Assembly (NCBI GenBank): GCA_000091205.1
Contig: AP006500.2
Reading direction: 5' to 3' (one strand)
Origin: Cyanidioschyzon merolae
Lineage: Eukaryota
Length of the DNA: 64,000 nucleotides
Shown here piece by piece: positions 1,988-64,000 of the stretch. The notes beneath the pieces were generated by a model. The model saw nothing but the letters and a program-made list of their open reading frames with translations. It was not told the origin of the DNA and did not search any database. The translations under genes were made by a program, and so were the position numbers. Position 1 is the stretch's first letter, and every line of letters begins with the position of its first letter.

Positions 1988-1988
<1 letters not shown>

Positions 1989-14916: not shown

Positions 14917-17899
14917 CCAGCAGAAACGGAGATGAGTTCCGTGGACGCATACATCAGCGAGGCAGCGTCCCGTTGGGAAGACCCGAACCGCTAGACAATG
15001 TTAGAACACGTTCGCAGCAACGCCTGATGCGGGTGCAGCGAAGCGGTACACTTCTACGGCGAGTTTCGGTGTATGAAAGTGCCCTGAAAGCGATCTTTAG
15101 AGTGTGCTGGCCATGGCGCTGCGGTGCAAACTACCTGTAATGTGACAGGAACGTCTAGGAAACGGAAACGTTCTAATACAGTAAAAGCAAACCTAAGATT
15201 ACGTGAATCCTCGTCACCAAAATCGGTGTAAAATAGAACGGATCCACTACTCCAACCCAGACGTTCACAAACTAGTGCGGGTCTATCGCTGCTCTAGTGA
15301 CCACTAACCTCTGCGGACTTTTTCTGAGACAAATCGTTTCCCTCTCTCTTATCTGCGGCTTTAAAGATGCCAGTCTCTCACGTCCGTCTATTTCTGTTGT
15401 TAGCAGTCGAAGGATGTGGATCACACTTTTGAAATCCCTATTCCGCAGTTTCCGAAAACTGTGCACGCATTCCGAGCATAGGGAAAAGTTACGAGCAACA
15501 CATCGTTTGCGGTTTTCATCTTTTTGGTGCAGAGGCTCGATGCACGCTTCGCAGCAATGACACTCGGGTGCGTTCAGGTGTTTTTGTATGTCCACTAAAC
15601 GTCTTCTTCCGAAGGCTGCCGCACTGCGGCGCGCGAAGGCTTGCTACATCGTTTAGTACAGTCCCATAACGGGCACAGAAGGCTGGCTTCGATTTCCTCG
15701 ACAGTTCCACGTCCGGTAACGGACCCAATAATCGCCGGCTTCCTTTGGGCGATCACCTGAGCGAGTACGACGTCCGCTGTATGTGCAAGCGCATGCTGTT
15801 CTGCCCGATAAAGGATTCTTGGAACGCGCTTTTTTCAACGATGACACGAGTGTTGGAAGGGAAATAGGGGCAAGAGAAGAAGTCGAGAAATTTCGATACA
15901 TCTACGCCTCCTTCGTGCGAAGCGCTGGCGCACTCTCCTCTATCGCAATGGATCGTGTTGATGACTCAGGTCCAATTACCAGACCCGTTTCCGTTCAGGC
16001 AGAAGAGACCGGAGCACCTGGGAGCATATACCGTGAAAGGTGCCATGCTACTGTCGAGCGTCATTTCCTCGATGGCTTCAAGGAGAGGAGGATTTGTGTT
16101 TCGAACGGAATCGCCTCTTTGAAATGACATACGCAGTGAGCTTTCAGCATGGGCTTGAAAAATAATCTTCAAGGAGCAACGTCGGGATACTTTCCTTGTC
16201 AATCCCCGTACGCGAAATGCCGCATCTACCAGTTGCCTTGAGACACGAAGATCGAAAACATGAACCATGCGTGATTCGAGCTTGCATTATGTGAGGAAAA
16301 GAGAAGCGTCGAAAGTTGTACATTTGAATTGGATAGTGATACAGCCTGTTTTACGAACTCTTGTTCAATGGCGTCGCGAATCATCTTGACTCCGGTGACG
16401 TAAAGTAATCCAACGGCAAAGCGTGGAAGGAGCCGCTCCTGAAATACGTCCGAGAATCCTCAAACGATCATTGAATATGTAAGCCCTAACTGCTGCACTT
16501 CGAATGGCGACGCTGATCATCAAACAATTTCGAACAAAAATCTCAAGCAGGACATAGTGAGCAGTTCAACGTTCCATGGATATCTGACTCACGTGGCACA
16601 TATGCGAGTGGGCTCTCGGGATTGCTGTTGGCCAGCAGCTCATTCAATACGTATGCTTCTCGACGCTTGCCGACGCGTTGCGTCAAATATGAAGCGCTTG
16701 GACATGGAAGTACTCTCCTAGCCGCCGATCAAAACAGCGCCAGCGAAGATCCCTCTTTTGACTCACCAATATTGCACCTAACAAACGCAACGAAAGGGCC
16801 GCTGCTGCAGCGGCCACCACACGCTTGGTGCTGGGGGACACACGACGCTGGCTTCCTTGCTGGCGATGTTTCCGTATTTCATGACGAAGAACTACACGAA
16901 GAAAATCATAAAGTTCGTGTCGCCTTTGCGCTTTCCATAACGGAAAGCAGGCAGATGGTCCACCTGGCTGGCCCTGGTATTGGATCAGTTCCCCTAAGGT
17001 CTTTGTCAAGAATTGCAAGCGGATCGGAAGCGTTCTAGCTGAGGATCTCGATGCTCGCGCATAAGAATATCAACCCCATGCAACATATGGGCGCCGCATC
17101 AAACATACCTGGCCTGTCTTTCCTCCTGGTGTCAAGTCGCAGAACTTGAATGTCCCTCCTTGCATAAAAAAGCGCGAGAGAAAAGCGTGAGTATACGCGA
17201 CGCTTCCCGACGGACTCCAATCCTTGGTTTGCACGCGGCAAGTACTTCACTGTTGATCGGGCTATGTGCAGCAAGCGATGTGCGCCTAACAGACACAGGG
17301 TACCAGCAGCCTCCCGCAAGTCCTGCGGTAGCTGGCAACAACCTACATGGTATCGCCCTCGCTGCTCAGCAGCAGCGCGCCAATTGAAAGCACCTATGGC
17401 CCGCTTCTGCAGCAGACGCGCTCTGTGGTAAAGCAAAGCCGTTCTGACTCCTTGCTACGACCGCACCAGCGATATAGGCGCTATCGGGGCTGCTCAGGGC
17501 AGGCACGCAGCCCAAGATAGAACGTGGAAAATACCTAGGAGGGAACGTATCGGTCGTGGAACTCATACGGAACGATGGACGTTTGGCCAATCGATACTAT
17601 AAAGCCCTCAATTGGTAAACCTGGGTCTCTCTCTCCCTGTATATATGTACATATGCGTGTGGGTGTCAAAGATGTTTCCGACAATAAAAAGAAACAGAGC
17701 ATCTGTCGAGAGCCCCTGCATGCCTCGTCGAAGCGTCTCCCAGGAAAGCGCCCGTGTCATCGATCAGGAGGGATTACTTGGGGGTGCTTTGGTAGGCACC
17801 CCCGAAATGTCGCGACGCGCGCTGTTGCCCAGTCGCAATCTCGATTCGTGAACGTACCTACGCTCTAGATTCTCTTCTGGGTCGAAAACTCACTCAGTT

Positions 17900-21337: not shown

Positions 21338-21760
21338 AACGATCAGAGCGCTATGTTAAGCGCGCTTACACAGGTACGAATGCGGCATTCTTGCGAGGAT
21401 CATGTCGACAGCGAAGAAATCGGGATCAGGTGAATTAATCGGGATGAGCTGGATTCGATGCACCCGCGAGCATCTAGTCGGCTTCCGGGAAACGGGGAAC
21501 GGATTGATCAACCGATTCTTCTGGCCCGGTATGCGAGCGGGCCCCAAGTCGGCTGCCGAGAAACGGACTTTTGGTCGACCCAGCGAGTTTCGCGACCTAG
21601 AGCCTTGCCGTGGGCGCTCGTAGCAATCCAGCATGTAGTACAATGGTGAACGCGCGAAAACAGGACAGATTTGCGGCACCGTCATGGGTATGCGCCCAAT
21701 TTTATCGATAACAAAGTCAATGCGAGCTGAAAGCGTAATACGAATATCTAAAACACCGTA

Positions 21761-24700
21761 CTCAGACCAGTGAATCCTGGAACACCTGGACCAGCAGCCC
21801 ATATTTGTTTCCGATCGTCTCTCTCGCAGATATGCAACTGACAGTGGCGTCCTTTGGATATGCAAAAAGTCGCGGATAGTCGTCCCGCTGGCACTGCTAG
21901 CTTGCGCGGAGACGGTCTTGAATGTACAAGTCATTCATTCTGTGATCAACAGGCGGGTCAGTCTCGCTTGAGCGGGTCGTTCTCCTGCCGCTCATGATCC
22001 CAAAATAGGGCCTTCCAAGTGCTATCGACATGACTGTCTCTCCATCAGTGTACGCCAGTCCATAGATGCTCAAAGAAACGGTATCAGAAAACCCACTGGA
22101 TGCGAATTTTCCATACCCTTGATATGAGCCGTGGTGAAGCGACATGGATGGGCAAAGAGAAAAAAAGGTGCCTCCCCAGGAGACCGTCACGAGCTGGACA
22201 ATTTCGATTCCGCATTGATAGGCGAACGCTTATGACAGGAGCGACCGGTACTCGCCTCTCTCGGTAACAGCTCTTTCGTGAAAAACGGAGGATCTAAACG
22301 TAGATACGCAAAGCGGTGCCAAAAATTCCTCTCGTAAAGCCTCGACCGGTGAGCGTAGCGACGACAACATCAGCCCCAGCGGCGATTCAAGCATGTAGTC
22401 GCCTGAGTCTCGGCAAACAGGCAGACTCAAGCAACACGTCTGCCTCCCTTCTTCGAAGCACTCTGTGGCCTCTGCTTCTCGCGTTATTCTGTCCTGCGGG
22501 TAGGCCACGTTGCTTGCTGTGACGCAAAGGCGCTCCACGAGTGCGCAGCTGAGACGAGCGTTGAGCTGGTGTTCGCTTCAGCCTGGAAGTGCACGCTCAG
22601 TCCAGTTGGAAGCGTCTTCTCTGTCCTCCGTCGCCATGCTTTCCCTCAGGATGCGTTCCATAAAAACGTTCGGATGCGTGACGCTGTCCTTGGACAAGTC
22701 GTTTTCAGTCTTCGTCAGCGTTGAACGACTCTGGTGCTGAGCGGGTCGCCTGCGGGGAGGGATCGGTGAAGCGCGCCTCAGGCGTTTGGCACGCTCGCGG
22801 CTGAGAAGCTCGTGGAAAAGGCAGCTGCGGGATCGGAAACATATATACGCGGGGAGGCAAGTTGCTGGCTCGCCGTCCATCCACGGGGTCTGACTGCCGG
22901 TGTAAGAAAATGGAAGTGGAGTGCGACGTGCACATCCACGCTACCCGCCACGAAAGGAGAATGCGAAGCAACCACCTGACAGAAAAGAGAAGGATCCCAG
23001 CCGCAAAGAGGACGACGAGAGTCAGGAAGGAAACCCTGCGCACTGGAAAGGCCAGTCCGAAACCAGCGCCTACACGTCGGTGCCAGAACGCATCAACGGA
23101 AAAAATTCTCCGAGTACGTGAGATGCCCAGGGCTATTAGGTATTGCGTAGAATGTGGTTGACGGAAGGCCCGCCTAGCTCTCCCCGAATGGATGCCCCTC
23201 GTGCAGCAACTGGCGGGAAGGGTTTCGGAGGCAGCGCTGCCAGCAGTTCGCATTCGTAGGGAGTTTTTGGTCAAACCCTCGAGCGACAGCACTAGGAATG
23301 CTCCGCTCCGAGCATGCCAGCGGGCCTGTTCGTGGTGTCGTTGACCAATACACACGCTGGCCGGCATCCGTTTCTGCGCTGCACTACATGGTTGCTCGGC
23401 CCATGGACAGCGTAGGTGCCAGGAAAAGTTTCGCCCAAACCTCAGAACCTATAGCCAAGAGCGGGTCCGTGGCGACTACCCTACGAGGCGCACCCCAGAG
23501 GCGTTGTACTCGTTGCGTCCACAGCGTTGTGGTCGACGAAATGTTGGCGACTGACGCAAGCGGCTCTTGGGATGTCCGTGGAGGCACGTGACGAGCTGGC
23601 TCCGGACGAGAAGGTGCTGGAAGCGAGCTCGGAGATGTCGCATCGAGAACGAGCGACGCTCCAGATCGTCCGAGCTCATGGAGTAGGTTTCTGTTCCGGA
23701 GCTGGGCACGTCGTCTCGGAAGGATTACGCGGGCGTTGACCTGGCCTAACTTGCATCCTGCGCTGCTAGGTTTTCGCGAACGCGGCGCTCCACCGCAAGG
23801 CAGACCCTCTGGTCGTATGTGAGCGCCTTTGCATCCTCAAACCCCTGGTCGATACGGTCCCCGCATTTCGGGGCAAAGCCCATGATACCACCGTGCATAT
23901 TTGTGTGGTGTACGACGTCCTCAGTGGTCTACGATGTGTGCGCACGAGCAGCTAGGGGGCACTCTGCCTATTTCGGGCAGAGCGTTGGCGGGGCTCGTTC
24001 AACGCCACTCGTTGGCTGGGAAAACACGGAAAGCGATGTACAGGGGCCTTGGGGACGCGCACGGCACATCAAACAGCATGCACTTTGCGAAACCGCGGCC
24101 CGATGGGAGCAACGAGACTCATATTCAACCGCTTACGGAAAACGAACGTGAAGGCTTCGTGGTGCGCGTGGATGCCGTTTCTGAGGGCGCCGTGGCCGTC
24201 ACCGTGCCCGTTCGTCACGGGGCAGCGCCAGAGACCTGAACGGAAAGCAAATGAGTCTGCTCCACGCCTCCAGGGCTCGGTATCATCCGGAGTTGGACGT
24301 GAACGACGCCAGCAGGCGTACCAACTCGTGGAATGACGACGTAAAGACCTGTCGTGACGCGCTGAGTACGGTATCGGGCAAAAGGAGATGCACTGCGCAC
24401 CTCATTCATAACGGGTATGAGCGACTAGATCGCTCATGCGGACGAGCCATGGCAGAGGAACGCGGGACCGAGCTCGAGTCTCCAACAGTCGCAACCGCTC
24501 GCGGGCACGAGGCGGGTATTCGCAAGCTTCCTCAAAGCACTGGAAACGGAACTGGCCGATCGGTTGCATCTTATAAAGATAGTGCATGGCGGTGGACGCG
24601 CTCTAGTTGCAGAACTGGACTGTCGTCGATAACGCACAAGGGATCCGCGAACCGGCACTGAAGTGCTCTCAGTGATGAGCTCTGGACGAGATTCTCACAT

Positions 24701-25185
24701 CGCGAGCACAGAGACACGCTGAAACTGCCGCTGGAGACGATTTGGAAACGGAGCCGGACGTATGAGATGACGTACGCTGAGTTCATTGAGCTCCAGGTGG
24801 CAATGCAGTCACAGTTGAGACGCTTGCTGTGGAGTGTCTCCATCACGAACGGGAAACGCGTCCAGTTTCTGAACCGAGATTTGAGCGCCCACATCAGCAT
24901 CTGGAACTGCGTCGTTCTTCAGGAGCGTCCATCGGCTTTACTTCAGGCGAGGCTTCGATTCGATTGTTTAGTATGCAGTGTGGGTATTGTGCTGGAATGC
25001 TGCGGACTCTCGATGAAAAACATCATGTATCATCAGAGCGGCGATTAAGTCCCCGCTTGGAGCAAGCCACTTGTATGGTACGGTCTGCACTGTATCAAGG
25101 CTGGACTGCCATATACCTTCGCCACGAACAATGCTCGTGGGTAATTGTCGAACACTCATCGTATTCCTTACTTGGGTATTACGGA
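21761..25185. repeat. 3.4-kb dispersed repeat R, copy 1 (no intact ORF)
   Basis: Near-identical to 39046-42468 and to 63229-64000. ORF-track entries are duplicated between copies with only point differences. Longest ORF is 220 aa with no recognisable domain. Confidence 0.9.
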
Positions 25186-38800: not shown

Positions 38801-39045
38801 ATGAGCTAGTCGGAGTTGCACCATTTCGTTCTGAAAAGTGTGGATAATTTGCACGCAGTTTGTTCCGTTGTCAACAGTGATGCCTCGCCAGATTTCTGAG
38901 CATCTCGACGATGCATGACAGCACAAGGAAGTTTCGGTGTTGCTATTCAGACTCTAATTATAAATATGACCAAGAGCACCACCGATCAAACAGCTATGCT
39001 GGCCGAGGCCGCGGAGTCCACGAATGCGGCTGACGGTGCGCTAAA

Positions 39046-42000
39046 CTCAGACCAGTGAATCCTGGAACACCTGGACCAGCAGCCCATATTTGTTTCCGAT
39101 CGTCTCTCTCGCAGATATGCAACTGACAGTGGCGTCCTTTGGATATGCAAAAAGTCGCGGATAGTCGTCCCGCTGGCACTGCTAGCTTGCGCGGAGACGG
39201 TCTTGAATGTACAAGTCATTCATTCTGTGATCAACAGGCGGGTCAGTCTCGCTTGAGCGGGTCGTTCTCCTGCCGCTCATGATCCCAAAATAGGGCCTTC
39301 CAAGTGCTATCGACATGACTGTCTCTCCATCAGTGTACGCCAGTCCACAGATGCTCAAAGAAACGGTATCAGAAAACCCACTGGATGCGAATTTTCCATA
39401 CCCTTGATATGAGCCGTGGTGAAGCGACATGGATGGGCAAAGAGAAAAAAAGGTGCCTCCCCAGGAGACCGTCACGAGCTGGACATTTTCGATTCCGCAT
39501 TGATAGGCGAACGCTTATGACAGGAGCGACCGGTACTCGCCTCTCTCGGCAACAGCTCTTTCGTGAAAAACGGAGGATCTAACCGTAGATACGCAAAGCG
39601 GTGCGAAATGCCTCTCGTAAAGCCTCGACCGGTGAGCGTAGCGACGACAACATCAGCCCCAGCGGCGATTCAAGCATGTAGTCGCCTGAGTATCGGCAAA
39701 CAGGCAGACTCAAGCAACACGTCTGCCTCCCTTCTTCGAAGCACTCTGTGGCCTCTGCTTCTCGCGTTATTCTGTCCTGCGGGTAGGCCACGTTGCTTGC
39801 TGTGACGCAAAGGCGCTCCACGAGTGCGCAGCTGAGACGAGCGTTGAGCTGGTGTTCGCTTCAGCCTGGAAGTGCACGCTCAGTCCAGTTGGAAGCGTCT
39901 TCTCTGTCCTCCGTCGCCATGCTTTCCCTCAGGATGCGTTCCATAAAAACGCTCGGATGCGTGACGCTGTCCTTGGACAAGTCGTTTTCAGTCTTCGTCA
40001 GCGTTGAACGACTCTGGTGCTGAGCGGGTCGCCTGCGGGGAGGGATCGGTGAAGCGCGCCTCAGGCGTTTGGCACGCTCGCGGCTGAGAAGCTCGTGGAA
40101 AAGGCAGCTGCGGGATCGGAAACATATATACGCGGGGAGGCAAGTTGCTGGCTCGCCGTCCATCCACGGGGTCTGACTGCCGGTGTAAGAAAATGGAAGT
40201 GGAGTGCGACGTGCACATCCACGCTACCCGCCACGAAAGGAGAATGCGAAGCAACCACCTGACAGAAAAGAGAAGGATCCCAGCCGCAAAGAGGACGACG
40301 AGAGTCAGGAAGGAAACCCTGCGCACTGGAAAGGCCAGTCCGAAACCAGCGCCTACACGTCGGTGCCAGAACGCATCAACGGAAAAAATTCTCCGAGTAC
40401 GTGAGATGCCCAGGGCTATTAGGTATTGCGTAGAATGTGGTTGTCGGAAGGCTCGCCTAGCTCTCCCCGAATGGATGCCCCTCGTGCAGCAACTGGCGGC
40501 AAGGGTTTCGGAGGCAGCGCTGCCAGCAGTTCGCATTCGTAGGGAGTTTTTGGTCAAACCCTCGAGCGACAGCACTAGGAATGCTCCGCTCCGAGCATGC
40601 CAGCGGGCCTGTTCGTGGTGTCATTGACCAATACACACGCTGGCCGGCATCCGTTTCTGCGCTGCACTACATGGTTGCTCGGCCCATGGACAGCGTAGGT
40701 GCCAGGAAAAGTTTCGCCCAAACCTCAGAACCCATAGCCAAGAGCGGGTCCGTGGCGACTACCCTACGAGGCGCACCCCAGAGGCGTTGTACTCGTTGCG
40801 TCCACAGCGTTGTGGTCGACGAAATGTTGGCGACTGACGCAAGCGGCTCTTGGGATGTCCGTGGAGGCACGTGACGAGCTGGCTCCGGACGAGAAGGTGC
40901 TGGAAGCGAGCTCGGAGATGTCGCATCGAGAACGAGCGACGCTCCAGATCGTCCGAGCTCATGGAGTAGGTTTCTGTTCCGGAGCTGGGCACGTCGTCTC
41001 GGAAGGATTACGCGGGCGTTGACCTGGCCTAACTTGCATCCTGCGCTGCTAGGTTTTCGCGAACGCGGCGCTCCACCGCAAGGCAGACCCTCTGGTCGTA
41101 TGTGAGCGCCTTTGCATCCTCAAACCCCTGGTCGATACGGTCCCCGCATTTCGGGGCAAAGCCCATGATACCACCGTGCATATTTGTGTGGTGTACGACG
41201 TCCTCAGTGGTCTACGATGTGTGCGCACGAGCAGCTAGGGGGCACTCTACCTATTTCGGGCAGAGCGTTGGCGGGGCTCGTTCATCGCCACTCGTTGGCT
41301 GGGAAAACACGGAAAGCGATGTACAGGGGCCTTGGAGACGCGCACGGCACATCAAACAGCATGCACTTTGCGAAACCCCGGCCCGCTCGGAGCAACGAGA
41401 CTCATATTCAACCGCTTACGGAAAACGAACGTGAAGGCTTCGTGGTGCGCGTGGATGCCGTTTCTGAGGGCGCCGTGGCCGTCACCGTGCCCGTTCGTCA
41501 CGGGGCAGCGCCAGAGACCTGAACGGAAAGCAAATGAGTCTGCTCCACGCCTCCAGGGCCCGGTATCATCCGGAGTTGGACGTGAACGACGCCAGCAGGC
41601 GTACCAACTCGTGGAATGACGACGTAAAGACCTGTCGTGACGCGCTGAGTACGGTATCGGGCAAAAGGAGATGCACTGCGCACCTCATTCATAACGGGTA
41701 TGAGCGACTAGATCGCTCATGCGGACGAGCCATGGCAGAGGAACGCGGGACCGAGCTCGAGTCTCCAACAGTCGCAACCGCTCGCGGGCACGAGGCGGGT
41801 ATTCGCAAGCTTCCTCAAAGCACTGGAAACGGAACTGGCCGATCGGTTGCATCTTATAAAGATAGTGCATGGCGGTGGACGCGCTCTAGTTGCAGAACTG
41901 GACTGTCGTCGATAACGCACAAGGGATCCGCGAACCGGCACTGAAGTGCTCTCGGTGATGAGCTCTGGACGAGATTCTCACATCGCGAGCACAGAGACAC

Positions 42001-42468
42001 GCTGAAACTGCCGGTGAAGACGATTTGGAAACGGAGCCAGACGTATGAGATGACGTACGCTGAGTTCATTGAGCTCCAGGTGGCAATGCACTCACAGTTG
42101 AGACGCTTGCTGTGGAGTGTCTCCATCACGAACGGGAAACGCGTCCAGTTTCTGAACCGAGATTTGAGCGCCCATATCAGCATCTGGAACTGCATCGTTC
42201 TTCAGGAGCGTCCATCGGCTTTACTTCAGGCGAGGCTTCGATTCGATTGTCTAGTATGCAGTGTGGGTATTGTGCTGGAATGCTGCGGACTCTCGATGAA
42301 AAACATCATGTATCATCAGAGCGGCGATTAAGTCCCCGCTTGGAGCAAGCCACTTGTATGGTACGGTCTGCACTGTATCAAGGCCGGACTGCCATATACC
42401 TTCGCCACGAACAATGTTCGTGGGTAATTGTGGAACACTCATCGTATTCCTTACTTGGGTATTACGGA
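39046..42468. repeat. 3.4-kb dispersed repeat R, copy 2
   Basis: Full-length direct copy of 21761-25185 with about 98-99% identity, inferred from duplicated ORF translations that differ only by point substitutions. Flanks are unrelated. Confidence 0.9.
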
Positions 42469-42784
42469 GTATAGCGCTGTAGCAAACGAGGCTGGCGCTG
42501 CAGTGCGTGGCATTCAAACATGACTCTGCGCTGGCCTTGAATTTCGTCCGGGCGGCATTCCGGTACAGTCTCGAAAACTTTCTCTGTGCAGCAGCGTGCA
42601 GCTGTCTGCAACTTTAGTTTGAGTTACCGCGCTATTACGTTCATATTCTGTACAGCACTCTTTTGCAGCGGTAGAGCTAGTTCTCTGTACAGCTGCGTAC
42701 TTTTATATATATATGAATACGCTCTGCGGGGCGAAAATGTTTCGCGAACATGAGGTAAACTCATGTCCAGTCACCGACGCCTTC

Positions 42785-43230
42785 CGGCCTTTATTGGCCG
42801 GCCCCGTGCCATCGGTGTCAGCTTCTCGTTGTTAACTTCAAGTACAAGAGGCTGCCCCAAAAAGCTCGCCCGCGTTAGCTCCTCGGGTGTTGTCTTCAGC
42901 GCCGCATATCCTTTAATATTGATGGCGGCGTTAAAGTGACTTTTCAATTACTCCCTGCGTCTAATGCCTCTGGTGGAACTCACCAATGCAGGGATTCCTC
43001 AAAATTCGTGCCCTCTGCGCTGGTACGGTATCATCATCATCCCGTCCGTTAAACACCGTTTCTCGCATACCTACCGTGTTCTTTTCCGCCCCACGGTCTG
43101 CAAGGCGAGGTCTCCTTTCGATTTTTTCCGCCAGACAGCTATGACTCGCCTCCAGGATCCCTGACAGCCGTATCAATGACGCTCCCTTCGATTTTGTATT
43201 TTTGAAAATGAACGCATTTCATATGCATCT
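42785..43230 (-). mobile_element. Degraded 3' portion of a Fanzor/TnpB-like element (RuvC-III region + downstream module)
   Basis: Minus strand encodes …GEFHQRH / (frameshift) SHFNAAINIKGYAALKTTPEELTRASFLGQPL…. This is homologous at protein and DNA level to 9334-9400, to 45560-45700 and to 58560-58720. It is interrupted by a stop and a frameshift. Confidence 0.6.
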
Positions 43231-44499
43231 GTGCTATATATCGTGGTAAAGGATTTGATAACATTGAACTGAGTGCGGAACGCAATTTAAGTGAGAACTA
43301 TGAACTTATGTAGCGTTAAATGTTACACAGGCACATGCTTGATGCAAAATTCGGGAGCGGCGCCCAATGATGTTTCTTGTACAGTTGCAGAAAGATTTAT
43401 TCAACTTTGTTTAGCTTAAGCTTTTCCCGAGATGTGAGCATCGCGCGTCTCCTGCACGGGGACCCTGAAGCGCTGCCTTGCACGTCTTCCGGCATAGAAT
43501 ACTTTCAGTGTTTGCTTGGCAGTCAGTTCTGAAACGGGGAGAGAGGCATCGCGACGAAGACGCCGCAGTGTAAGCTGCGAAGAACACTGACAAGTTTATG
43601 GTGCACGCTGTAGCACCAGCGCTTCGAGTTGTGCGCTTTTTGGAGAAGTCGTGCTACGGTCTCTTTCAGGCTCCTTGTTCCCGGGGTTGCAGCACGTTAC
43701 GACCACCTGGTGCTGGACGGGCTAGTAACGTGAGAGCACCTCGCGAGCTGCCGTTTGAGAAAGAAGAGCACGCAGTGGGTTTACCGCGCCTCGCTTCTCT
43801 GGGCACCGCAGCCGTTGTGGGTCCAGCGGCAGCTTTTGTCTCCGCTATGGTGATATCGTATGCCCTGACTTTTTGGCAACACTCCACTAACCTAAACAAG
43901 TCCAAATCAAGAGGCTAAGGACGCTCAGACAGGAGCATTCTGTGCACTTGGACTCTTCGGGACTCCCGGCAAGCCGCGGGTGACGAGCGCGCCCCGGCTA
44001 CAACGCAGCAACCGAAGTGGAACAGATGAAAGGCGTTTCTTGGAAAAAATTTCTGGCAAAGAACTCAAATTTTCGATACGCATAATCTCCCCGATGTTTC
44101 GGACTTAGGTACAGGGCTGGTCGTGAAGCACAGAGGTTTTGTCTTTCTATCGAACTTCGAAAAGTTGCTTATCCGGCGCGAAATCCGCATGCAATGCCTT
44201 CCGGGCCATTCTATCCAGCAGATAAGCGTCATAGAGGCGTTTCACGACGCTTTCGCTACTCTTACCTCATTTCAGAGCTTATCAACCTGAACGATTCCAT
44301 TTCAGAATGGAAATCAAGACCTTTCGTAGCCGATACCATCGAGCTGCGCAGAAAAGCGGTATATGTTGCGTGGTTCCCAACTGCGTATCCCTTTCAACTA
44401 AGTTTAATTTCACCTCCGCTACCGCGCTTACCACGAGATCAAAACCACTAGGCACAGTACCGTACAAATCGTAGACGAATTGCCTGTAGAATATATTTT

Positions 44500-45290
44500 T
44501 ACTGAACAGTGCAAGGAGAACTGCAATTACCCTGCAGGTCAGTCACACCATATTACTCGCGTGGTGGTAGAGCACTTTAAGAAAGAGTTACATGCGCTCC
44601 GCATCAAAACCCGATATTCTCAAAGAGCACTTGCGTTTAATGGTAGAGAATGACCTGTTAATCACCTGACTGAAAGCAAAAGCGAGGATCGTGGTCGCCA
44701 CCTGCTTCTCTGTTTCTCAACCGGTAGTTCATGTAATGCTGAAAAACTGGCAAACAGTCGCAAAAAATCCCTGTTCACTCAAGGCCATCTTTTTACCGAC
44801 ATCGCAGTTAAAACAAAGTTCCTGGAACGTCATTATCGGCATGAAACAGAGGGGCGTCGGTTTGTTGTTTCAGTCGATGAGACTCCCTTCGGACAAGACG
44901 GTCGGGTCGTTGATGAGTATTCGAGGTGAAGGGAGCCCATTGTCTGTGCGATCGGACTCAAAGAGAACGACGATATTATCTGTTCTAGCTGTAGTGGATT
45001 CAAGTGGCGGCCTGGGTTTTGCTGGAACAGAAGGCCCTCACAACAGCACCAACAACTTTGTCGAATCATTGAAGACTTTTCCCAGACGTCCGGCGACTTC
45101 GTTCTGTTGGACAACGTGGTACTTCGCCATTCCCGTTGCGTTCGGGCTTTTGCCGAGGCTATCGGAGTAGAGATGCTTTTCATTCCTTCGTACGCTCCGC
45201 GGTTCAACCGCATCGAAGGAGAGTTTTCTATCAAAAAAAGCAATGCACGCACCACTATTCGAATCGATGATGCGTTCAGCACACGGTGAC
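44500..45290 (+). pseudogene. Tc1/mariner (IS630-superfamily) DDE transposase remnant, frameshifted
   Basis: Across three frames: …RRFVVSVDETPFGQDG… (DE motif), …AGTEGPHNSTNNFVESLKTFPRRPATS… and …LLDNVVLRHSRCVRAFAEAIGVEMLFIPSYAPRFNRIEGEFS… (the characteristic C-terminal DNaxiH…LPpYSPdLNPIE block containing the third acidic residue). Several frameshifts. Confidence 0.65.
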
Positions 45291-45366
45291 ACGCCGGAGC
45301 CAATTTTATTTTGCTTGCGCAAATACTGCTCTTTTGGGGAAGGTCCCCACCTGAAGACATAACGAA

Positions 45367-45745
45367 GTGCGTTCATTTGAAGAAATAAAAAATCTTAGGA
45401 ATGAGCTGGGGTGTACACTTGAGAAGTTCGAGATAAAGAAACGCCAGCGGGCGCTTCGGCGAAAGAAAAATACGGAGAGCTTACAGAGCAGCATATGGCA
45501 CGAAAGGCGCAAGTTCGAATACTACTTGTACTCGGAACACGAGCGGCGGCAAGAAACGCATGGAGCTCGTGATCCGAGGCTTGAACGCTGCTATCAATAT
45601 CAGGAGATATTCTGTGTTGAAAACAAGGCCCGCAGGGATAACGCGTGCCAATTTTGTGGGATTGCCTCTCAGAGTCAAAATGCTCAAGGACGAGCTGATA
45701 CCGATAGCAGGGGGCCGGCGAAAAAGATATCGGAAGGTGTCACAA
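45367..45745 (+). mobile_element. Fanzor/TnpB-like 3' remnant, co-linear with the adjacent Tc1/mariner transposase remnant
   Basis: Plus strand encodes …LGCTLEKFE… (compare PGCTLQGVE in the 9334 copy) and, after a frameshift, TSGGKKRMELVIRGLNAAINIRRYSVLKTRPAGITRANFVGLPLRV. Compare TSDGKKRMEFVNRDFNAAINV and NAAINIKGYAALKTTPEELTRASFLGQPL in the other copies. The 3' end gataccgatagcagggggccggcgaaaaagatatcggaagg matches gacaccgatggcacggggccggccaataaaggccggaagg in the 42785 copy (read in revcomp). Confidence 0.65.
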
Positions 45746-45903
45746 CGTCGCTGGAAAGACATACATTCTATGCCAGGAAAGTATTTTCGTGGCGCCGACA
45801 TGAGCGCCGCCTGCACCTGCAATCCTACCCGCTGATCCGAAGAGCGCTCTACGCATACGCTCTGGGCTATTTTCTGCAGCTTTCTTGAGGTTTAGCACAT
45901 ATA

Positions 45904-47283
45904 TTGTACAGCTTTATGTGGCAGACTGGGCTGCACTCGTCGACGTCTTTATATTGGAGTTGTACGCTTGGAGCAACTGGCACTTCGACAGGAAAGCCAG
46001 CCTCGGTCGCGCACCGCTGCTCAGTCTCAGCAGCGGGCTTCCGCGCTGCCCCGATGCCGTGTATCCGTCGTGGTGTCTGCACGTCACGCACGCACTCGAG
46101 GACTTCAAATCCCTTGAAGATGCAACGGAACACTGATCCGGCGGGCAATAGCATAGGAATCGAACCGACTGTGCGAGTAGAGGACGTATACAAGTCGTTC
46201 CAAGATAAAAAGAAAAGCCTCTTCTCTTGGCGTTTTGAAGCGTTGACAGTTCCGGCTCTCAGGGGGGTGTCCCTTGACGTTTACGCTGGTGAAGTCTTCG
46301 GTTTACTTGGCCCGAACTCTTCGGGCAAGACAACGCTCTTACGTTGCATGTCGACTTTGTGCAAGCCAGATCGAGGTGCTGTGTACGTGTTAGGCAAACA
46401 TACGGTGCGAGAGTCCTTTGCGGTGCGGCATTGCATAGGAGTGGTCTTTCAAGACGCCGGTGTTGATAAAATTCTCACTGGGCGTGAGCATATGGAACTC
46501 TTTGGAAACTTGTACCACATGCCACCCGCTCATTTGCGTCGTCGCATTGATGAACTTGTCGGCATGCTAGAACTCGAGCCCTACGTGGATCGCCTAACGG
46601 GCACCTATTCGGGAGGAATCAAGAGGCGCCTCGATCTCGCTCTAGGGCTGCTGCATGAACCTTCAGTTCTGTTGCTTGATGAGCCCACGGTCGGCTTAGA
46701 TCTTAGCAGCCGGCGAGTTATCTGGAATGCTGTTCGAAAATATGCTACAGCGGGGAATACGATTGTTTTCACGTCTCACTACTTAGAAGAAGTTGAGATT
46801 CTGGCTGACCGAGTCGCTATTCTGGATGAGGGGGTCTCGATCGCGGTCGGTTCGCCGCCAGACCTGAAACGCCAAATCGGTGGTAGACGGTTCACGATTC
46901 GAGTGGAGGAGTTTTGTCCAGAAAATATTGCCCAGGCGGCTCTGGAGGCGCTACGAAGCGAGGGCATCGTAGAGAGGGCGCAGATCAATGCATTTGATTA
47001 CAATGCGCTCGAGCTATTTGTTGAGCCGGAGCTGCTGGATCAGCTAGGTATTGATCCTTCGTTGAACGAGGATGAAGCCTATTCGGTGTACGCGGAAAGA
47101 ATTCGTCAGACACTGAAAGGAAAAGGATTTGATCTCTTCGGTATTACGGAACGAGGTGTGAGTCTGAGCGATGTCTATATGTCGTTTGCTGGGCGCGATT
47201 TTCGCGCTGCAGATGAAGCCGCGCGATTGGATGCAAGCACGAAAAAGCGGAAACCAAAGCGCCGTTCCAGCTTGGAAAGCTAG
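45904..47283 (+). CDS. ABC transporter ATP-binding protein (ATPase-only, ABC-2/DrrA/CcmA-like) with C-terminal extension
   Basis: Walker A (GLLGPNSSGKTT), ABC signature (YSGGIKRRLDLA), Walker B (LLLDEPTVGLD) and H-loop (FTSHY). The probable true start is the Met at about 46120 (MQRNTDPAG…). The upstream part of the ORF overlaps the TE remnant. Confidence 0.8.
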   Translation: MYSFMWQTGLHSSTSLYWSCTLGATGTSTGKPASVAHRCSVSAAGFRAAPMPCIRRGVCTSRTHSRTSNPLKMQRNTDPAGNSIGIEPTVRVEDVYKSFQDKKKSLFSWRFEALTVPALRGVSLDVYAGEVFGLLGPNSSGKTTLLRCMSTLCKPDRGAVYVLGKHTVRESFAVRHCIGVVFQDAGVDKILTGREHMELFGNLYHMPPAHLRRRIDELVGMLELEPYVDRLTGTYSGGIKRRLDLALGLLHEPSVLLLDEPTVGLDLSSRRVIWNAVRKYATAGNTIVFTSHYLEEVEILADRVAILDEGVSIAVGSPPDLKRQIGGRRFTIRVEEFCPENIAQAALEALRSEGIVERAQINAFDYNALELFVEPELLDQLGIDPSLNEDEAYSVYAERIRQTLKGKGFDLFGITERGVSLSDVYMSFAGRDFRAADEAARLDASTKKRKPKRRSSLES

Positions 47284-48335: not shown

Positions 48336-49747
48336 GCCAAGGTTAAAAAGGAACACTGACCTTATCGGACTGCTGCTACCTATCGATTCCTTAACCTACC
48401 TTGAATGGATGCTTGGCCTCGAAAGTCGAATTGCAGTAATACGGGCATACAGATTCATATACAGTTCTGAGAAGTTCGGTGGTCTGTTCGACTTGACTCC
48501 TTCGACGCTTTGCCGCTAGAATGCGTTACGGATCCGAAATAAAGATGGTACGCGACGCCCTCGAACAGGGTTCGTTATTCGACCTGCATCGTTGTCCAAT
48601 TCACATGTTCAACCTCAACTGTGCTGCTTTCCTTATACGCAGCAGGCTGAAAGCACGCATCCTTCAAGTTTCCGATCATTCTATTTCAAGGCGACTCGAG
48701 GGCGCAGCAGTTCGCGCCGCTGGACTGGCGAAGAATGCTGCTTGACGTCGCCCCTGAGGAAATGCTCAGAAGCTCATAGCGAAAAGTCACTGAAATTCTC
48801 ACGATAAATAATCGATTGCGTTCGAGAGTCGAATCCTCCCCTCTTTGTGGTCATCGACGAAGCAGCATTCGACGGCAGCGCAATAGATCTCACGGGAGAT
48901 GCTTTCATATGTCACCGTCTCTTCTGTTTGCATGGAAAGGGTCTTGGACTTTGAGTTGAGGCATCGCAGCGATTGCTTCCAGTAGAGCCTGCGTCACCGC
49001 TTTGCGGTAAGGGACCGTAAAAGGATCGAAATTTCTCGACTTTTACCCTAGCGAGGTGTCTCCTCCCCGCACTAGTGCCGTCGTGGGCAGCATCGCGCGA
49101 CGCAAACCCTCCGTCCAATGAACAGCGAGCGCTGGTGTTTGCATCGGGCAGAGTACTCGCGGACATGGTCGCCCAGAAGAACCCCGTGATTTAAGGGTAC
49201 AGCACCGGGCGCGGAAACCGCGGAGCGCATCCTGGGGCGCCTTCTGTACCCTTCAAGCGCATGAACCGAGCGCATGAACCGAGCGCATGAACCGAGCGCA
49301 TGAACCGAGCGCATGAACCGAGCGCATGAACCGAGCGCTGAAGCGAGCCCTCACGCGCTGCAGGGTGAGCCTCGTTGGCGAAGGAGGCGTACTCCTTATA
49401 TGCGACCATCTAAGCGCATCCATGCGTCACGCCTGTGCAGAGGGCAGCGAGACTGTGTCCAAAGAAGATGACAAGAGCAATTGAAACGCAGATCGCAACC
49501 TCAGCCTGTGCATGAAATGCGTCTAAACAGGCCGCAAGTAACGTGGCTCGGACTGTACTGCTGCCAGCAATACTCCCCCATTGGTGACAATAGAACTTCA
49601 GGGATAGGTGAGACCAGCGTATTCAAAGGCGAGCTTGAGAGCAACGAAAGAGAAGCAGTCGCTGAACGGTCAGTGAAAAGCTGGTTTTCATGGCAATTAC
49701 GAGGGACTCAAACTCTAGGGTGTGCTTGTGAGTTCCCTGAGTGCATC
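48336..49747 (+). repeat. Left arm (E2) of a 1.4-kb inverted repeat flanking tsaE
   Basis: Reverse-complement identical or near-identical to 51344-52755. ORF-track proteins are duplicated on opposite strands (for example 48521..48745+ equals 52346..52570-, and 49191..49409- equals 51682..51900+). Outer boundary is at gccaaggttaaaaagg; inner boundary at …gagttccctgagtgcatc. Confidence 0.9.
49259..49336. repeat. Tandem repeat (GCATGAACCGAGC)x6 inside the IR arm. Mirror copy at 51755-51832
   Basis: Six perfect 13-nt units read directly. In the diverged copy E1 the unit corresponds to a single-copy segment gggcattaaccgtgc. Confidence 0.95.
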
Positions 49748-49989
49748 AGTCTTATTTTTATGTGGCACATGTACAAGGCACGCTTCGTCGGAGCAGGCAA
49801 TGGAAGCTCGCCTCACGACCGACGGTGGATTCTGCAACGAGCTGCATAACGCGCTGCGGTCTGTTCGTAGCAGCATTTATGTTGCTAGTGGTGCTTTCTC
49901 GAGCTGAGGACGAAAGCTGCTTCCTTAGAAGGACACGGGGTGGCGATCGAAGTCCACGCTGAAGTCAGCGACTTCCTTCTGGCATTTCT

Positions 49990-50670
49990 ATGCGAAGAAA
50001 CACGCTGAGTGGCTTTCTCCCTCTGCTTAGGGTAAGGGCACGAAAAGCGACTGTTTCGCAACAACCCTCCTCGATGAGCGTTTTCGCACAGTACTCGTCT
50101 CAGCAGCACCAGCAGTGCTCCTCTATAGAGCGGGTGAGTTGTCGCCGTTTCCGCTTAGAGTCTCCACCTGATACTTGGAGGCTAGGCGCTGCGCTGGCTC
50201 GCCTTGCACGGCCTGGCGATGTGTTTCTGCTTCAGGGCAGCCTCGGAGCCGGAAAGACGACATTGGCTCGGGGCTTTATTCAAGAGTTTCTGAACGATCC
50301 CGAACTTGAAGTTGTCTCACCTACGTATCTTCTGGACGTGACCTATCCGGACTACGAGAACAAGGCCAAAGTTCCTGGTGTAGTTCTTCATCATCTGGAC
50401 TTGTATAGGCTGGAGAACGCTGACGATCGCCCAATTGCGGACTTTGCCGATATATTCACCCATCAAATATGCTTGGTCGAATGGCCAGAGCGCCTGGGAA
50501 AGTATTCAACACCAGAAGAATTCTTGCAGATCCGCTTCTCCTTCGTAGCGGGCGCGGATGGGCCTCGCGTTATTGAATCATCTGGTTTTGCGAGTCACAA
50601 GCACCTGGAGAATCCACGCTGGTCACAGGCACGCATCGATCAAATACAATGGCAATGTTCAGCAGCTTAG
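49990..50670 (+). CDS. tsaE: tRNA threonylcarbamoyladenosine (t6A) biosynthesis protein TsaE (YjeE-type ATPase) with N-terminal extension
   Basis: P-loop LQGSLGAGKTTLARG, SPTYLLDVTY, HLDLYRLEN and ICLVEWPE blocks match the bacterial/plastid TsaE family. A 55-60-aa Arg/Ser-rich N-terminal extension suggests organelle targeting. Confidence 0.8.
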   Translation: MRRNTLSGFLPLLRVRARKATVSQQPSSMSVFAQYSSQQHQQCSSIERVSCRRFRLESPPDTWRLGAALARLARPGDVFLLQGSLGAGKTTLARGFIQEFLNDPELEVVSPTYLLDVTYPDYENKAKVPGVVLHHLDLYRLENADDRPIADFADIFTHQICLVEWPERLGKYSTPEEFLQIRFSFVAGADGPRVIESSGFASHKHLENPRWSQARIDQIQWQCSAA

Positions 50671-51343
50671 ATATGCCGAGAGCCTCCGAAGCTTTCGAGG
50701 AGACCACCATTGCGTAGACCCTGACGCACACCTCGGGTGTGATTGGACCGGCTCTCTGTGCGTCTTCAACGCTTTTCTCGTTGCCGCAGAGACGAGCACA
50801 TATGTGGCATGGCTGTTTCATGCTGCCTCGATCTCTTATATACTGGAGTGCGAGCAGGCCCTATCATCAAGTCGACACCGTGTGCGTCGTTCTAGCGCTG
50901 CCGCTTGATGGAGTTCTCCGTAGAAAGCAGCCATGTGAACTTTCGTGGCAATGCACATATCCGTTCCGCAAGCGTGCTACTTGTTCAAACTGCTACATAT
51001 GGGAATTTTCAGTCTTTGCCGACGCATAAATCTTCGAAAGATGGACGCACATGTTAAGGAGAACGAAAGATCTTTCAAGATCCACGAAACCGCGAAATAT
51101 GAACGCGGCATTAGCAGCGTCGGAAGCAGTCTAGCCCAACGACTACCCAACGACTCTTCTGTGGTATATCTTCGAATGACTTCTGTCCATTGTCGCGTGA
51201 TAAGAGTTGATGGTATGGCAGTATCCGTAGATAATAATCACAGCGCAATGTCGTGTGTTCGACATGAGTTGCGGAGGCACCCCGCAACGTTTGTTCGTTG
51301 TCTTCGTCTCATGCTTACTCTCGTGAGAGAATAAAGTAAAGCA

Positions 51344-52755
51344 GATGCACTCAGGGAACTCACAAGCACACCCTAGAGTTTGAGTCCCTCGTAATTGCCA
51401 TGAAAACCAGCTTTTCACTGACCGTTCAGCGACTGCTTCTCTTTCGTTGCTCTCAAGCTCGCCTTTGAATACGCTGGTCTCACCTATCCCTGAAGTTCTA
51501 TTGTCACCAATGGGGGAGTATTGCTGGCAGCAGTACAGTCCGAGCCACGTTACTTGCGGCCTGTTTAGACGCATTTCATGCACAGGCTGAGGTTGCGATC
51601 TGCGTTTCAATTGCTCTTGTCATCTTCTTTGGACACAGTCTCGCTGCCCTCTGCACAGGCGTGACGCATGGATGCGCTTAGATGGTCGCATATAAGGAGT
51701 ACGCCTCCTTCGCCAACGAGGCTCACCCTGCAGCGCGTGAGGGCTCGCTTCAGCGCTCGGTTCATGCGCTCGGTTCATGCGCTCGGTTCATGCGCTCGGT
51801 TCATGCGCTCGGTTCATGCGCTCGGTTCATGCGCTTGAAGGGTACAGAAGGCGCCCCAGGATGCGCTCCGCGGTTTCCGCGCCCGGTGCTGTACCCTTAA
51901 ATCACGGGGTTCTTCTGGGCGACCATGTCCGCGAGTACTCTGCCCGATGCAAACACCAGCGCTCGCTGTTCATTGGACGGAGGGTTTGCGTCGCGCGATG
52001 CTGCCCACGACGGCACTAGTGCGGGGAGGAGACACCTCGCTAGGGTAAAAGTCGAGAAATTTCGATCCTTTTACGGTCCCTTACCGCAAAGCGGTGACGC
52101 AGGCTCTACTGGAAGCAATCGCTGCGATGCCTCAACTCAAAGTCCAAGACCCTTTCCATGCAAACAGAAGAGACGGTGACATATGAAAGCATCTCCCGTG
52201 AGATCTATTGCGCTGCCGTCGAATGCTGCTTCGTCGATGACCACAAAGAGGGGAGGATTCGACTCTCGAACGCAATCGATTATTTATCGTGAGAATTTCA
52301 GTGACTTTTCGCTATGAGCTTCTGAGCATTTCCTCAGGGGCGACGTCAAGCAGCATTCTTCGCCAGTCCAGCGGCGCGAACTGCTGCGCCCTCGAGTCGC
52401 CTTGAAATAGAATGATCGGAAACTTGAAGGATGCGTGCTTTCAGCCTGCTGCGTATAAGGAAAGCAGCACAGTTGAGGTTGAACATGTGAATTGGACAAC
52501 GATGCAGGTCGAATAACGAACCCTGTTCGAGGGCGTCGCGTACCATCTTTATTTCGGATCCGTAACGCATTCTAGCGGCAAAGCGTCGAAGGAGTCAAGT
52601 CGAACAGACCACCGAACTTCTCAGAACTGTATATGAATCTGTATGCCCGTATTACTGCAATTCGACTTTCGAGGCCAAGCATCCATTCAAGGTAGGTTAA
52701 GGAATCGATAGGTAGCAGCAGTCCGATAAGGTCAGTGTTCCTTTTTAACCTTGGC
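51344..52755 (-). repeat. Right arm (E3) of the 1.4-kb inverted repeat flanking tsaE
   Basis: Reverse complement of 48336-49747; see that feature. Confidence 0.9.
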
Positions 52756-57800: not shown

Positions 57801-58549
57801 TGCAAAGCGGAGACGTAGAATTCCATGGAAATGATTGCAGCAGTGATTGGAGTTCGAACCCAGCATCCGTTTCCATGCAAGCAGAACAGACGGGATCCTG
57901 TAACTGCACATCTCGTAAGAGTAACTGGGCCACATTTGAATGGCGTTTCACTGATGGTAATGAAGAGAGGTGGATTCGACGTGCAAAATGAATCAATCAT
58001 GTGAAGAGGTAATTTGATTGAATTTTCTGCATGAGCTTGTGAGCAAAACGTGAATGAACGACATCGAGTTTTTTACTCGTCTATCCATCAGAGCGAATCT
58101 TGTGCCCACGTGTAGCCCAGAAACAGAACTTTCGAGTTCTTGAACACTCCGGAATTCGAGCATCCTGGTCATAAGGGAAATAGAAGAGTGAAGGGATGCA
58201 CGTATGAACTGTTTCATGATTTCGTATATTTTACAGACCCTTGTTTTACGACATCGCGGTTCTGCTTAATTTCGGTCATTCAACGAATTGCACCGGTAAA
58301 AAGTGGAAGGAACCACTCCGGAAAGAAAATCGAGAACTCTTAAACTACGTATGAATCCGTAAAATTTTAGTCATGATATTCGAATGTCGACAATGTTCAC
58401 CTGAAACATTTTCGGAGAAAAACAAAAGGTATGAGCAGACCGAGCTGTTCAGTGTTCTGTTCTAACCTGACACTGGTGTATATGTATGTTCAGTAAAACA
58501 ATAAACTTTCAAGGACCCTAGAGTGTCTATACACACCCAATCACATACG

Positions 58550-59040
58550 CCTCCCAGCATGTTTTGGCCGGTCTCCTGCTATCGGCCTCAGTTTCTCTTT
58601 TTACACGTCGACCCTGAGAGGCTGTCCCACAAAGTTTGCCTGCGTCAGCTCTTCGCGTCTCGTCTTCAGCGCCACACATCGTCTGACATTGACGGCGGCG
58701 TCTTATTCTCGGCTTAGAAAATCCTTGGGTTTATGGCGATTGGTTGAGGTCACTACTGCAAGGAATCGCAGAACAAGCGCCCTCTGTGCCACTGTACTCT
58801 CGTTATCGTCTCTTCGGGCGAAAAACTTTTCTCGCCTGCCTCCTCTTTTCCTCATCCTCTTCGTCACTTGCTCGTCTTCACTCGATGGTCAGGGACGGGA
58901 GGATCTTGAAGCTTCTCCGACATCAGGCAATGACGGCCCTGCAAAATCCCTGACTTCCATATCCATACCTCTAACTTGGATTTTGTACTTTTTAAAAATG
59001 ACGTACTTCGAGCTCATTTGCTATAAACCGCGAAAAGGCA
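58550..59040 (-). mobile_element. Degraded Fanzor/TnpB-like 3' remnant
   Basis: Minus strand encodes DAAVNVRRCVALKTRREELTQANFVGQPLRVDV*. About 450 bp of DNA are similar to 42785-43230, for example ggccggtctcctgctatcgg // ggccggccccgtgccatcgg, and atccctgacttccatatccatacc…gattttgtactttttaaaaatgac // atccctgacagccgtatcaatgac…gattttgtatttttgaaaatgaac. Confidence 0.55.
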
Positions 59041-59149
59041 TTTAATTACACGCACATGAGGTCGATCACACTTGAGGTGAAAGAATATTCGGACCCGCCA
59101 CAAAGCGGATCGATTTTGTGATGAGCGCACTGGCAACACCGCAAGTGAC

Positions 59150-63228: not shown

Positions 63229-64000
63229 CACAGATGCTCAAAGAAACGGTATCAGAAAACCCACTGGATGCGAATTTTCCATACCCTTGATATGAGCCGT
63301 GGTGAAGCGACATGGATGGGCAAAGAGAAAAAAAGGTGCCTCCCCAGGAGACCGTCACGAGCTGGACATTTTCGATTCCGCATTGATAGGCGAACGCTTA
63401 TGACAGGAGCGACCGGTACTCGCCTCTCTCGGTAACAGCTCTTTCGTGAAAAACGGAGGATCTAACCGTGGATACGCAAAGCGGTGCGAAACGCCTCTCG
63501 TAAAGCCTCGACCGGTGAGCGTAGCGACGACAACATCAGCCCCAGCGGCGATTCAAGCATGTAGTCGCCTGAGTATCGGCAAACAGGCAGACTCAAGCAA
63601 CACGTCTGCCTCCCTTCTTCGAAGCACTCTGTGGCCTCTGCTTCTCGCGTTATTCTGTCCTGCGGGTAGGCCACGTTGCTTGCTGTGACGCAAAGGCGCT
63701 CCACGAGTGCGCAGCTGAGACGAGCGTTGAGCTGGTGTTCGCTTCAGCCTGGAAGTGCACGCTCAGTCCAGTTGGAAGCGTCTTCTCTGTCCTCCGTCGC
63801 CATGCTTTCCCTCAGGATGCGTTCCATAAAAACGTTCGGATGCGTGACGCTGTCCTTGGACAAGTCGTTTTCAGTCTTCGTCAGCGTTGAACGACTCTGG
63901 TGCTGAGCGGGTCGCCTGCGGGGAGGGATCGGTAAAGCGCGCCTCAGGCGTTTGGCACGCTCGCGGCTGAGAAGCTCGTGGAAAAGGCAGCTGCGGGATC
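63229..64000. repeat. 3.4-kb dispersed repeat R, copy 3 (lacks first ~300 bp; runs off window end)
   Basis: Matches 39346-40120 and 22063-22840 nearly base for base. Begins at cacagatgctcaaagaaacggtatc…. Confidence 0.9.

Follow-up and report, generated by a model that had tools for sequence, protein, structure and literature searches.

Relic of a probable composite IS630/Tc1/mariner-type transposon carrying a Fanzor1 gene in Cyanidioschyzon merolae, and its link to CMe-1A

Fanzor1 genes are already known to be carried by Tc1/mariner transposons, as in the Mariner elements PUl-1 and PUl-2 of Pythium ultimum and in PGv-1 (Bao & Jurka 2013, PMC3627910). The Fanzor1 element of Cyanidioschyzon merolae, CMe-1A, which has about 150 copies and a 3169-bp consensus, was published without a transposase, terminal inverted repeats (TIRs) or target-site duplications (TSDs) and with the entry "classification unknown" (PMC3627910). 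According to the literature, TnpB is a guide-RNA-directed homing nuclease that restores excised transposons, and the same has been proposed for Fanzor. Here we describe a transposon relic in a stretch of 64,000 nucleotides of the red alga C. merolae, strain 10D (contig AP006500.2, assembly GCA_000091205.1; hereafter the window). A prediction made earlier from the letters of this stretch (the original prediction) had taken two neighbouring remnants, of a transposase and of a Fanzor-like protein, as the footprint of a composite Fanzor-carrying transposon. The analysis supported this proposal. Positions 44387-45798 are very probably a single long-dead insertion, a non-autonomous derivative of a composite IS630/Tc1/mariner cut-and-paste transposon, an architecture that is no surprise given the elements already described.

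The transposase half proved to be real. The block quoted in the original prediction, LLDNVV...IPSYAPRFNRIEGEF, is present in the three-frame translation, and the frameshift-corrected translation of approximately 44780-45290 matched Pfam DDE_3 (PF13358) with an E value of 4.3e-14 (53 bits, cutoff 28.6). A 234-amino-acid (aa) reconstruction matched the NCBIfam IS630 transposase model (NF033545) with an E value of 6.8e-18 over profile positions 85-282 of 299, its score of 65 bits lying below the model cutoff of 100. The catalytic triad comprises a D at 44876-44878, a D at 45110-45112 and an E at 45215-45217; the last two are 34 residues apart, the DD34E spacing. The remnant had been thought to end at about 45290, whereas a frameshifted tail reaches the ancestral stop codon TAA at 45360-45362; homology to family members extends to this stop from a lost start codon, where ATG has become CAG (44455-44457). 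At least four frame changes and three stop codons have accumulated in the homology-carrying frames, and tblastn with the reconstructed family protein gave matches in three frames. The N-terminal region is also broken, and aligns to the N termini of two intact relatives, L020 and L027 (see below), which match HTH_Tnp_Tc3_2 with E values of 1.6e-5 and 1e-4, respectively, both below the gathering score.

Between the two remnants a gap of about 75 bp had been noted. Its sequence is not random, since 45290-45362 is the transposase tail and 45363-45400 is a homologous spacer, matching the 38 nucleotides (nt) immediately before the CMe-1A start codon. Its alignment exceeded that of shuffles by approximately 10 standard deviations against a copy at 43 kb of the window and by approximately 8 against the CMe-1A consensus, which was taken from the supplementary file of Bao & Jurka 2013 (PMC3627910). 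The C-terminal Fanzor-like remnant predicted to follow on the same strand is likewise real, being 75% identical to CMe-1A, a published Fanzor1 (blastn, E value of 1e-47). It corresponds to the 3' sixth of CMe-1A and covers the degenerate zinc-finger and RuvC-III region. Its start ATG (consensus 906-908) is fused to consensus position 2737, and the piece therefore results from an internal deletion and not from a simple 5' truncation. Two frameshifting indels are present. The family consensus Fanzor protein carries the motifs GADPG, EFRTS and NRDFNAAINI; in the window remnant the last of these reads IRGLNAAINI, the catalytic RD having changed to RG, and of the split RuvC motif D...[TS][TS]-zinc finger...RD only this altered last part is kept. 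The remnant is a dead fragment and not a functional member.

The arrangement was then compared among family copies obtained by scanning JGI metagenome contigs with the family-consensus protein. The best 80 of 131 confirmed candidates were used, and all locus counts are lower bounds; by flanking sequence the 80 loci formed 43 groups, 34 of which were of C. merolae type and were counted as independent copies. A CMe-1A-type Fanzor sequence directly followed the transposase, on the same strand and after a spacer of about 40 bp, in 30 of the 34. The exact junction of the window copy, in which reference 1016 is joined to 2845 (CMe-1A 908 to 2737), was found in 16 of them (form A), a form B-like junction (approximately CMe-1A 970 joined to approximately 2840) in nine, and other deletion breakpoints in four. 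The remaining one, L067, has a nearly complete Fanzor; it was collinear with the reconstructed 3.2-kb full-length reference over 2-2692, starting at the left end and running past the transposase into about 1.7 kb of Fanzor, where the contig stops. No Fanzor open reading frame (ORF) sequence was detected in four copies: two interrupted by TE-N2_CMe, plus L057, where the spacer and ~35 nt from the start of the Fanzor ORF survive, and L069, in which a larger deletion spared only the right end. The original prediction had named remnants that are always separate and differently flanked as the mark of chance juxtaposition; the opposite was found in these 34 metagenome loci.

The identical deletion junction in 16 copies indicates that the transposase and the truncated Fanzor were amplified as one unit. 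Host genes beside eight tested loci fell in clusters of at least 90% identity with 10D proteins, and these proteins are spread over seven or more 10D sequence records (one of the host genes was identical to BAM81760.1); the copies are therefore dispersed in C. merolae-type genomes and do not belong to one duplicated segment. In the 34 independent loci and in the window, the limits of homology coincide at both ends. Over 1344 bp the window copy has 80.3% identity to the form A consensus. Across the family, column identity to this consensus is about 0.80 inside the element, with 0.81 to 0.82 in the transposase and 0.80 to 0.81 in the truncated Fanzor, compared with 0.41 to 0.43 in the flanks; the two halves are of equal age. 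Taken with the shared ends and the shared junction, this flat identity makes the two remnants a single insertion of one repeat unit.

When 1.84 billion proteins were searched by HMMER with the reconstructed transposase, 599 matched, many of them short decayed ORFs with 45 to 56% identity and others intact with ~300 aa; one decayed ORF, P0009, runs from the transposase tail via the same spacer into a CMe-1A-type Fanzor start. With a word-indexed protein search the reconstructed transposase found only the same locus in another strain, while a 26-sequence alignment used as the query scored six proteins.

Distant relatives from other metagenomes (L020, L027 and L032) carry both the transposase and the Fanzor as long ORFs, and two more (L031 and L041) have the same gene order and short spacer and are truncated by contig ends. 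The ends of L027 (contig Ga0209923_1001289) are TA followed by TACTCTGTGCATTGAATAATGAAACA on the left and TGTTTCATTATTCATTTTCCCGGGTA followed by TA on the right, with a 26- to 28-nt TIR in which 20 of 26 positions match. These TIRs enclose an intact 300-aa transposase (DDE_3, E value of 1e-27) and an intact 702-aa Fanzor homologue. Gene order and spacer in L027, as in the four similar loci, are those of the C. merolae family, and its left end, TA followed by TACTCTGTG..., resembles that of the family, TA followed by TAGTCTTTC...; L027 differs from the C. merolae copies in its intact ORFs, its clear TIR and the TA on both sides. A copy with both ORFs, TIRs and TA, which the original prediction had suggested looking for, is thus available in a distant relative, whereas no intact one was present among the C. 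merolae-type copies. The C. merolae and distant-relative versions are 45% identical in the transposase and 42% in the Fanzor, so both genes diverged in parallel. The composites of these five loci, with a ~300-aa transposase followed by a ~700-aa Fanzor1, are apparently active. Homology also extends to PUl-1: the family transposase matched that of PUl-1 with an E value of 6e-15 (29% identity), and the CMe-1A-type Fanzor profile matched its Fanzor1 by hhalign (probability of 98.2%, E value of 5e-14) and by blastp (E value of 4e-6), with 22 to 23% identity. Two further observations concern these relatives: in L027 a second transposase copy starts just past the right TIR, and some of the composite-bearing contigs come from a brine sample.

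Regarding the termini, ends at about 44450 and 45760 with TIRs had been anticipated; they actually lie at about 44387 and 45798, with TIRs that are weakly recognisable and flanking TA that is eroded. Among the family copies, the left end TAGTCTTTCAACTCAATTTTGTTTCACCCC is preceded by T in 15 of 20 (P=4e-6) and by A in 12 of 20 (P=9e-4), and the right end ...GTGAAACATTTTTTGTTTCACTGA is followed about 3 nt later by T in 10 of 18 and by A in nine of 18. The left flank is conserved as ..T.TTA, a candidate transposon-adjacent motif. Cut-and-paste transposition at TA by a DD34E enzyme would be the best-supported mechanism for the C. merolae copies.

Several points weigh against this view of the locus. 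The right-flank positions were scored without gaps, and TA is absent at the window copy itself, whose flanks are GT (44385-44386) and TG. The family-consensus ends form a weak, imperfect TIR (22 of 39 positions matching in an end-anchored alignment, equalled by 18 of 1000 shuffles), in which only the terminal T.GTC and an inner GTTTCAC are common to both ends. Within window positions 43200-46200, the inverted repeats found were chance-level pairs only. Pfam gave no significant match for the Fanzor pieces, the CMe-1A protein or the intact Fanzor homologues, and PDB sequence searches of Fanzor ORFs found nothing, whether a single protein or a 4-sequence profile was the query. The copies compared are, moreover, the best-scoring part of the candidates, and their source was metagenome contigs of C. 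merolae-type strains rather than the 10D assembly. Finally, an intact transposase is lacking in all 35 C. merolae-type copies, where open stretches reach 199 codons at most; no autonomous source was seen in the C. merolae-type lineage, and among the loci sampled the family is extinct. Since the form A consensus itself carries transposase frameshifts and no copy exceeds 199 open codons, form A is non-autonomous.

Other explanations were weighed on the same evidence. An old mariner-like insertion could have come to lie beside an unrelated 5'-truncated CMe-1A fragment, the more easily as CMe-1A is abundant (~150 copies; PMC3627910), as three other CMe-1A-derived copies in the window lack a transposase, and as no other DDE_3 copy was found within it. 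Such a coincidence is nevertheless extremely improbable when order, strand and spacer are the same in 30 of 34 independent loci, the junction is the same in 16, the outer termini are shared and both halves are equally diverged. It is also very unlikely that a Fanzor element landed once in or beside a mariner in the Cyanidioschyzon lineage and that the chimera was then amplified, the Fanzor not being ancestral cargo. In favour of such a secondary nesting, Fanzor elements are often chimeric (Bao & Jurka, PMC3627910), and two 3' termini exist, one of composite type and one of CMe-1A type (the latter in the L063 group). However, L020, L027, L031, L032 and L041 share the gene order and the short spacer, the divergence of both genes is similar (45% and 42%), and the TIRs of L027 enclose the two of them.

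More pertinent to the mechanism is the proposal that the unit is real and spread by other means, as the TIR-less CMe-1A and TE-N2_CMe would have done, its transposase gene being a passenger relic. In its favour are the barely detectable TIRs, the transposase frameshifts already present in the subfamily consensus, and the approximately 150 copies of CMe-1A, which have no transposase gene and were described without TIRs or TSDs. In the P-MITE survey, moreover, MITEs (miniature inverted-repeat transposable elements) were reported in all but one of 41 plant species, the exception being Cyanidioschyzon. We consider this proposal very unlikely, in view of the enrichment of TA on both flanks, the terminal T.GTC/GAC.A symmetry and the resemblance of the left end to the L027 TIR. 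For Tc1/mariner elements, non-autonomous derivatives mobilised in trans are the rule.

On our preferred reading, a single insertion derived from a composite, the ancestral element would have measured about 3.2 to 3.5 kb and comprised a short left end, a ~300-aa DD34E transposase, a 40-bp spacer, a ~730-aa CMe-1A-type Fanzor1 and the right end. It would have been transposed at TA sites by its DDE enzyme, and by analogy with bacterial TnpB the original role of the Fanzor may have been to cut emptied donor sites, whose repair would restore the element. Form A would have arisen by an internal deletion that fused the Fanzor start codon to the last ~360 nt, in a master whose transposase reading frame was already broken. 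This 1.4-kb unit would have been copied to new sites by transposase acting in trans, and each copy would then have decayed neutrally to about 80% identity to the consensus. As the form A master was already a transposase pseudogene, the window copy was presumably mobilised in trans. L067 and L027 represent full-length forms of the unit; the window copy has no present function.

The comparison also bears on the origin of CMe-1A. Consensus positions 785-817 (TATAGTTTTTCAGTTCAATTGTGTTTCAACCC) aligned to the left terminus of the composite with a score of 22, compared with 11 +/- 1.3 for shuffles. The alignment runs to about 866 and, passing over the transposase gene, takes up again at the post-stop spacer; from 785 onward CMe-1A therefore corresponds to the same element minus the transposase gene. 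The deletion of that gene is precise, from about 12 nt before the ATG to the stop codon. CMe-1A and the composite are homologous in the Fanzor gene, in the 38-bp spacer before it and in about 80 nt of left end, whereas CMe-1A differs in having TE-N2_CMe plus ~150 bp on its 5' side and in its last ~70 nt. The full-length copy in the window has the same organisation, with the left end, the spacer and the Fanzor gene of the composite from consensus 785 onward and a 3' terminus of the different type. A mariner element splitting a CMe-1A copy was rejected, no CMe-1A 5' sequence being present upstream of the transposase, as was CMe-1A 787-866 as a relic of the transposase 3' end, since the segment matches the left end of the composite. 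A literature search, with Repbase outside its scope, found no paper linking CMe-1A to a transposase composite.

Two mini-elements in the window begin at the left end of the composite and have the form B deletion. Each is built of the left end and the spacer, then ~60 nt from the start and ~230 nt from the end of the Fanzor ORF, and finally the right end; the one nearer to the relic lies head-to-head with it, 1.1 kb apart. As for TE-N2_CMe, it is the 5' 635 bp of CMe-1A and occurs in the window at 17411-17525 (minus strand). In the family it was found at fixed places relative to the composite (loci L009, L058, L016, L033 and L034): two independent loci have it within transposase codon ~225, and elsewhere it is inverted and abuts the right end. 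This recurrent placement hints at a targeted or functional association.

The 3' region of the unit has features of its own. The 3' 247 nt of the consensus, which end in a small hairpin, folded better than shuffles (z=-3.1), as did the 3' 280 nt of CMe-1A (z=-2.4). The 3' segment retained, made up of the end of the Fanzor gene and the right end, amounts to 275 nt or more in no fewer than five independent deletion classes (form A, form B, L012, L038/L056 and L043), while on the 5' side about 80 nt are sufficient, as seen in CMe-1A. An element acting in cis at the 3' end, for instance a guide RNA, would fit this asymmetry, which is no more than suggestive. Whether the derivatives are guide-RNA-bearing non-autonomous elements, using Fanzor protein supplied in trans by CMe-1A copies with intact ORFs, is a possibility that we hold to be doubtful; if true, the non-autonomous derivatives of bacterial IS605 that bear guide RNAs would have in them a counterpart in eukaryotes.

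Other observations on the family concern its reading frames and its distribution. In the form A consensus (approximately window 45287-45420), the frame after a premature TGA (...AFSTR) crosses the spacer and enters the Fanzor C-terminal frame without a stop, and P0009 reads through it. This open frame could be due to chance or be the relic of a fusion ORF. At locus L085/L086, two separate DDE_3-bearing relics lie one on each side of a BOP1/ERB1 gene (10001-12055), which shows local clustering of these elements.

The coordinates of the element, of its parts and of the CMe-1A-derived copies in the window are listed in Table 1.

Table 1. Parts of the relic and other copies derived from CMe-1A in the 64,000-nt window
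Feature	Positions	Strand	Basis or description
Whole element, one form A non-autonomous copy, 1412 bp	44387-45798	+	Shared homology limits
Left end and 5' untranslated region	44387-44454	+	Window ATCCCTTTCAACTAAGTTTAATTTCACC; family consensus TAGTCTTTCAACTCAATTTTGTTTCACCCC
Pseudogene of DD34E IS630/Tc1/mariner-type transposase, ~301 codons	44455-45362	+	Pfam DDE_3, NCBIfam IS630, tblastn
Intergenic spacer, transposase stop to Fanzor start, 38 bp	45363-45400	+	CMe-1A consensus 868-905
Internally deleted Fanzor1 gene	45401-45755	+	blastn against CMe-1A consensus 2737-3096; start ATG followed by consensus 2740-3096; junction common to 16 other loci
Right end	45756-45798	+	Window ...CATTCTATGCCAGGAAAGTATTTTCGTGGCGCCGA; family consensus ...CCATGGTCGTGAAACATTTTTTGTTTCACTGA, ending in a small hairpin
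Full-length frameshifted CMe-1A copy	9116-12260	-	83% identity to consensus 3-3169
MITE-like derivative, ~580 bp, no transposase	42722-43300	-	Reference 982-1075 plus 2956-3233
Second MITE-like derivative, same structure (~580-600 bp)	58490-59087	-	Structure as in the first derivative

The host setting is eukaryotic and nearly intron-free, with genes including those for USP7, a Vps54-like protein and a peroxisomal multifunctional enzyme; two ORFs of the window are exact matches to the C. merolae 10D proteins BAM82571.1 and BAM82567.1. No tRNAs or Rfam families were detected in it. The same locus, with the element included, is present at ~99% identity in metagenome contigs L001-L004, and the insertion is therefore fixed in related strains. 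An overlap of the relic with the ORF of the downstream ABC gene, as had been predicted, was not borne out. In the 10D annotation (BAM82575.1, 455 aa) the gene starts at 45916, 117 bp past the right end of the element, and there is therefore no overlap. The gene calls of the metagenome contigs (23 contigs read) place the start at the ATG at 46120; the start region is 99% identical between strains, so it is uninformative for the choice. For annotation purposes, 44387-45798 should be masked as one transposon relic, leaving the neighbouring ABC gene unaffected.

Two other repeats were observed in the window. A 3.4-kb direct repeat with 99.0% identity occupies 21760-25185 and 39045-42468, with a third, partial copy at the window end (63229-64000; 98.6 to 99.4%). 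Pfam gave no match for its ORFs. As to its nature there are two readings, a young multi-copy element and a recent segmental duplication. A perfect (100%) inverted repeat of 1412 bp (48336-49747 and 51344-52755) has a spacer of 1596 bp that contains a TsaE gene (49990-50670; Pfam E value of 1e-27). Contigs L001-L003 join 49284 to 51770 running downward and hold this TsaE-bearing spacer in the opposite orientation, which reflects either a flip-flop inversion or an assembly ambiguity.

The family itself, the series of deletions seen in it and the connection with CMe-1A appear not to have been described before. The only Fanzor family described for C. merolae is hereby tied to a composite of the DD34E IS630/Tc1/mariner type. 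The copies form a natural deletion series, from the full composite to the transposase with a truncated Fanzor, the Fanzor only (CMe-1A) and the ~580-bp mini-element. The series shows which parts are dispensable for spread, and could guide experiments on the contribution of Fanzor and guide RNA to a cut-and-paste transposon.

Compared with known systems, the family shares the DDE_3 domain and the DD34E spacing with the IS630/Tc1 transposases (DDE_3, NF033545), and with ~300 aa its transposase is nearer in size to bacterial IS630 than to a typical eukaryotic Tc1 (~340 aa). PUl-1, PUl-2 and PGv-1 have a ~300-aa transposase 5' of Fanzor1 on the same strand, within 3.4 to 3.8 kb bounded by short TIRs and TA duplications, the gene order being that of the C. 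merolae family; the C. merolae copies differ in being all dead and mostly internally deleted, with nearly unrecognisable TIRs. As in the bacterial IS200/IS605 TnpB-guide-RNA systems, the gene for an RNA-guided nuclease travels with a transposase, which is of the HUH or serine type in IS200/IS605 and of the DDE type in the C. merolae composite. A further likeness, seen here at the sequence level, is that the deletion derivatives keep the 3' part, the one that encodes the guide RNA in TnpB and Fanzor systems.

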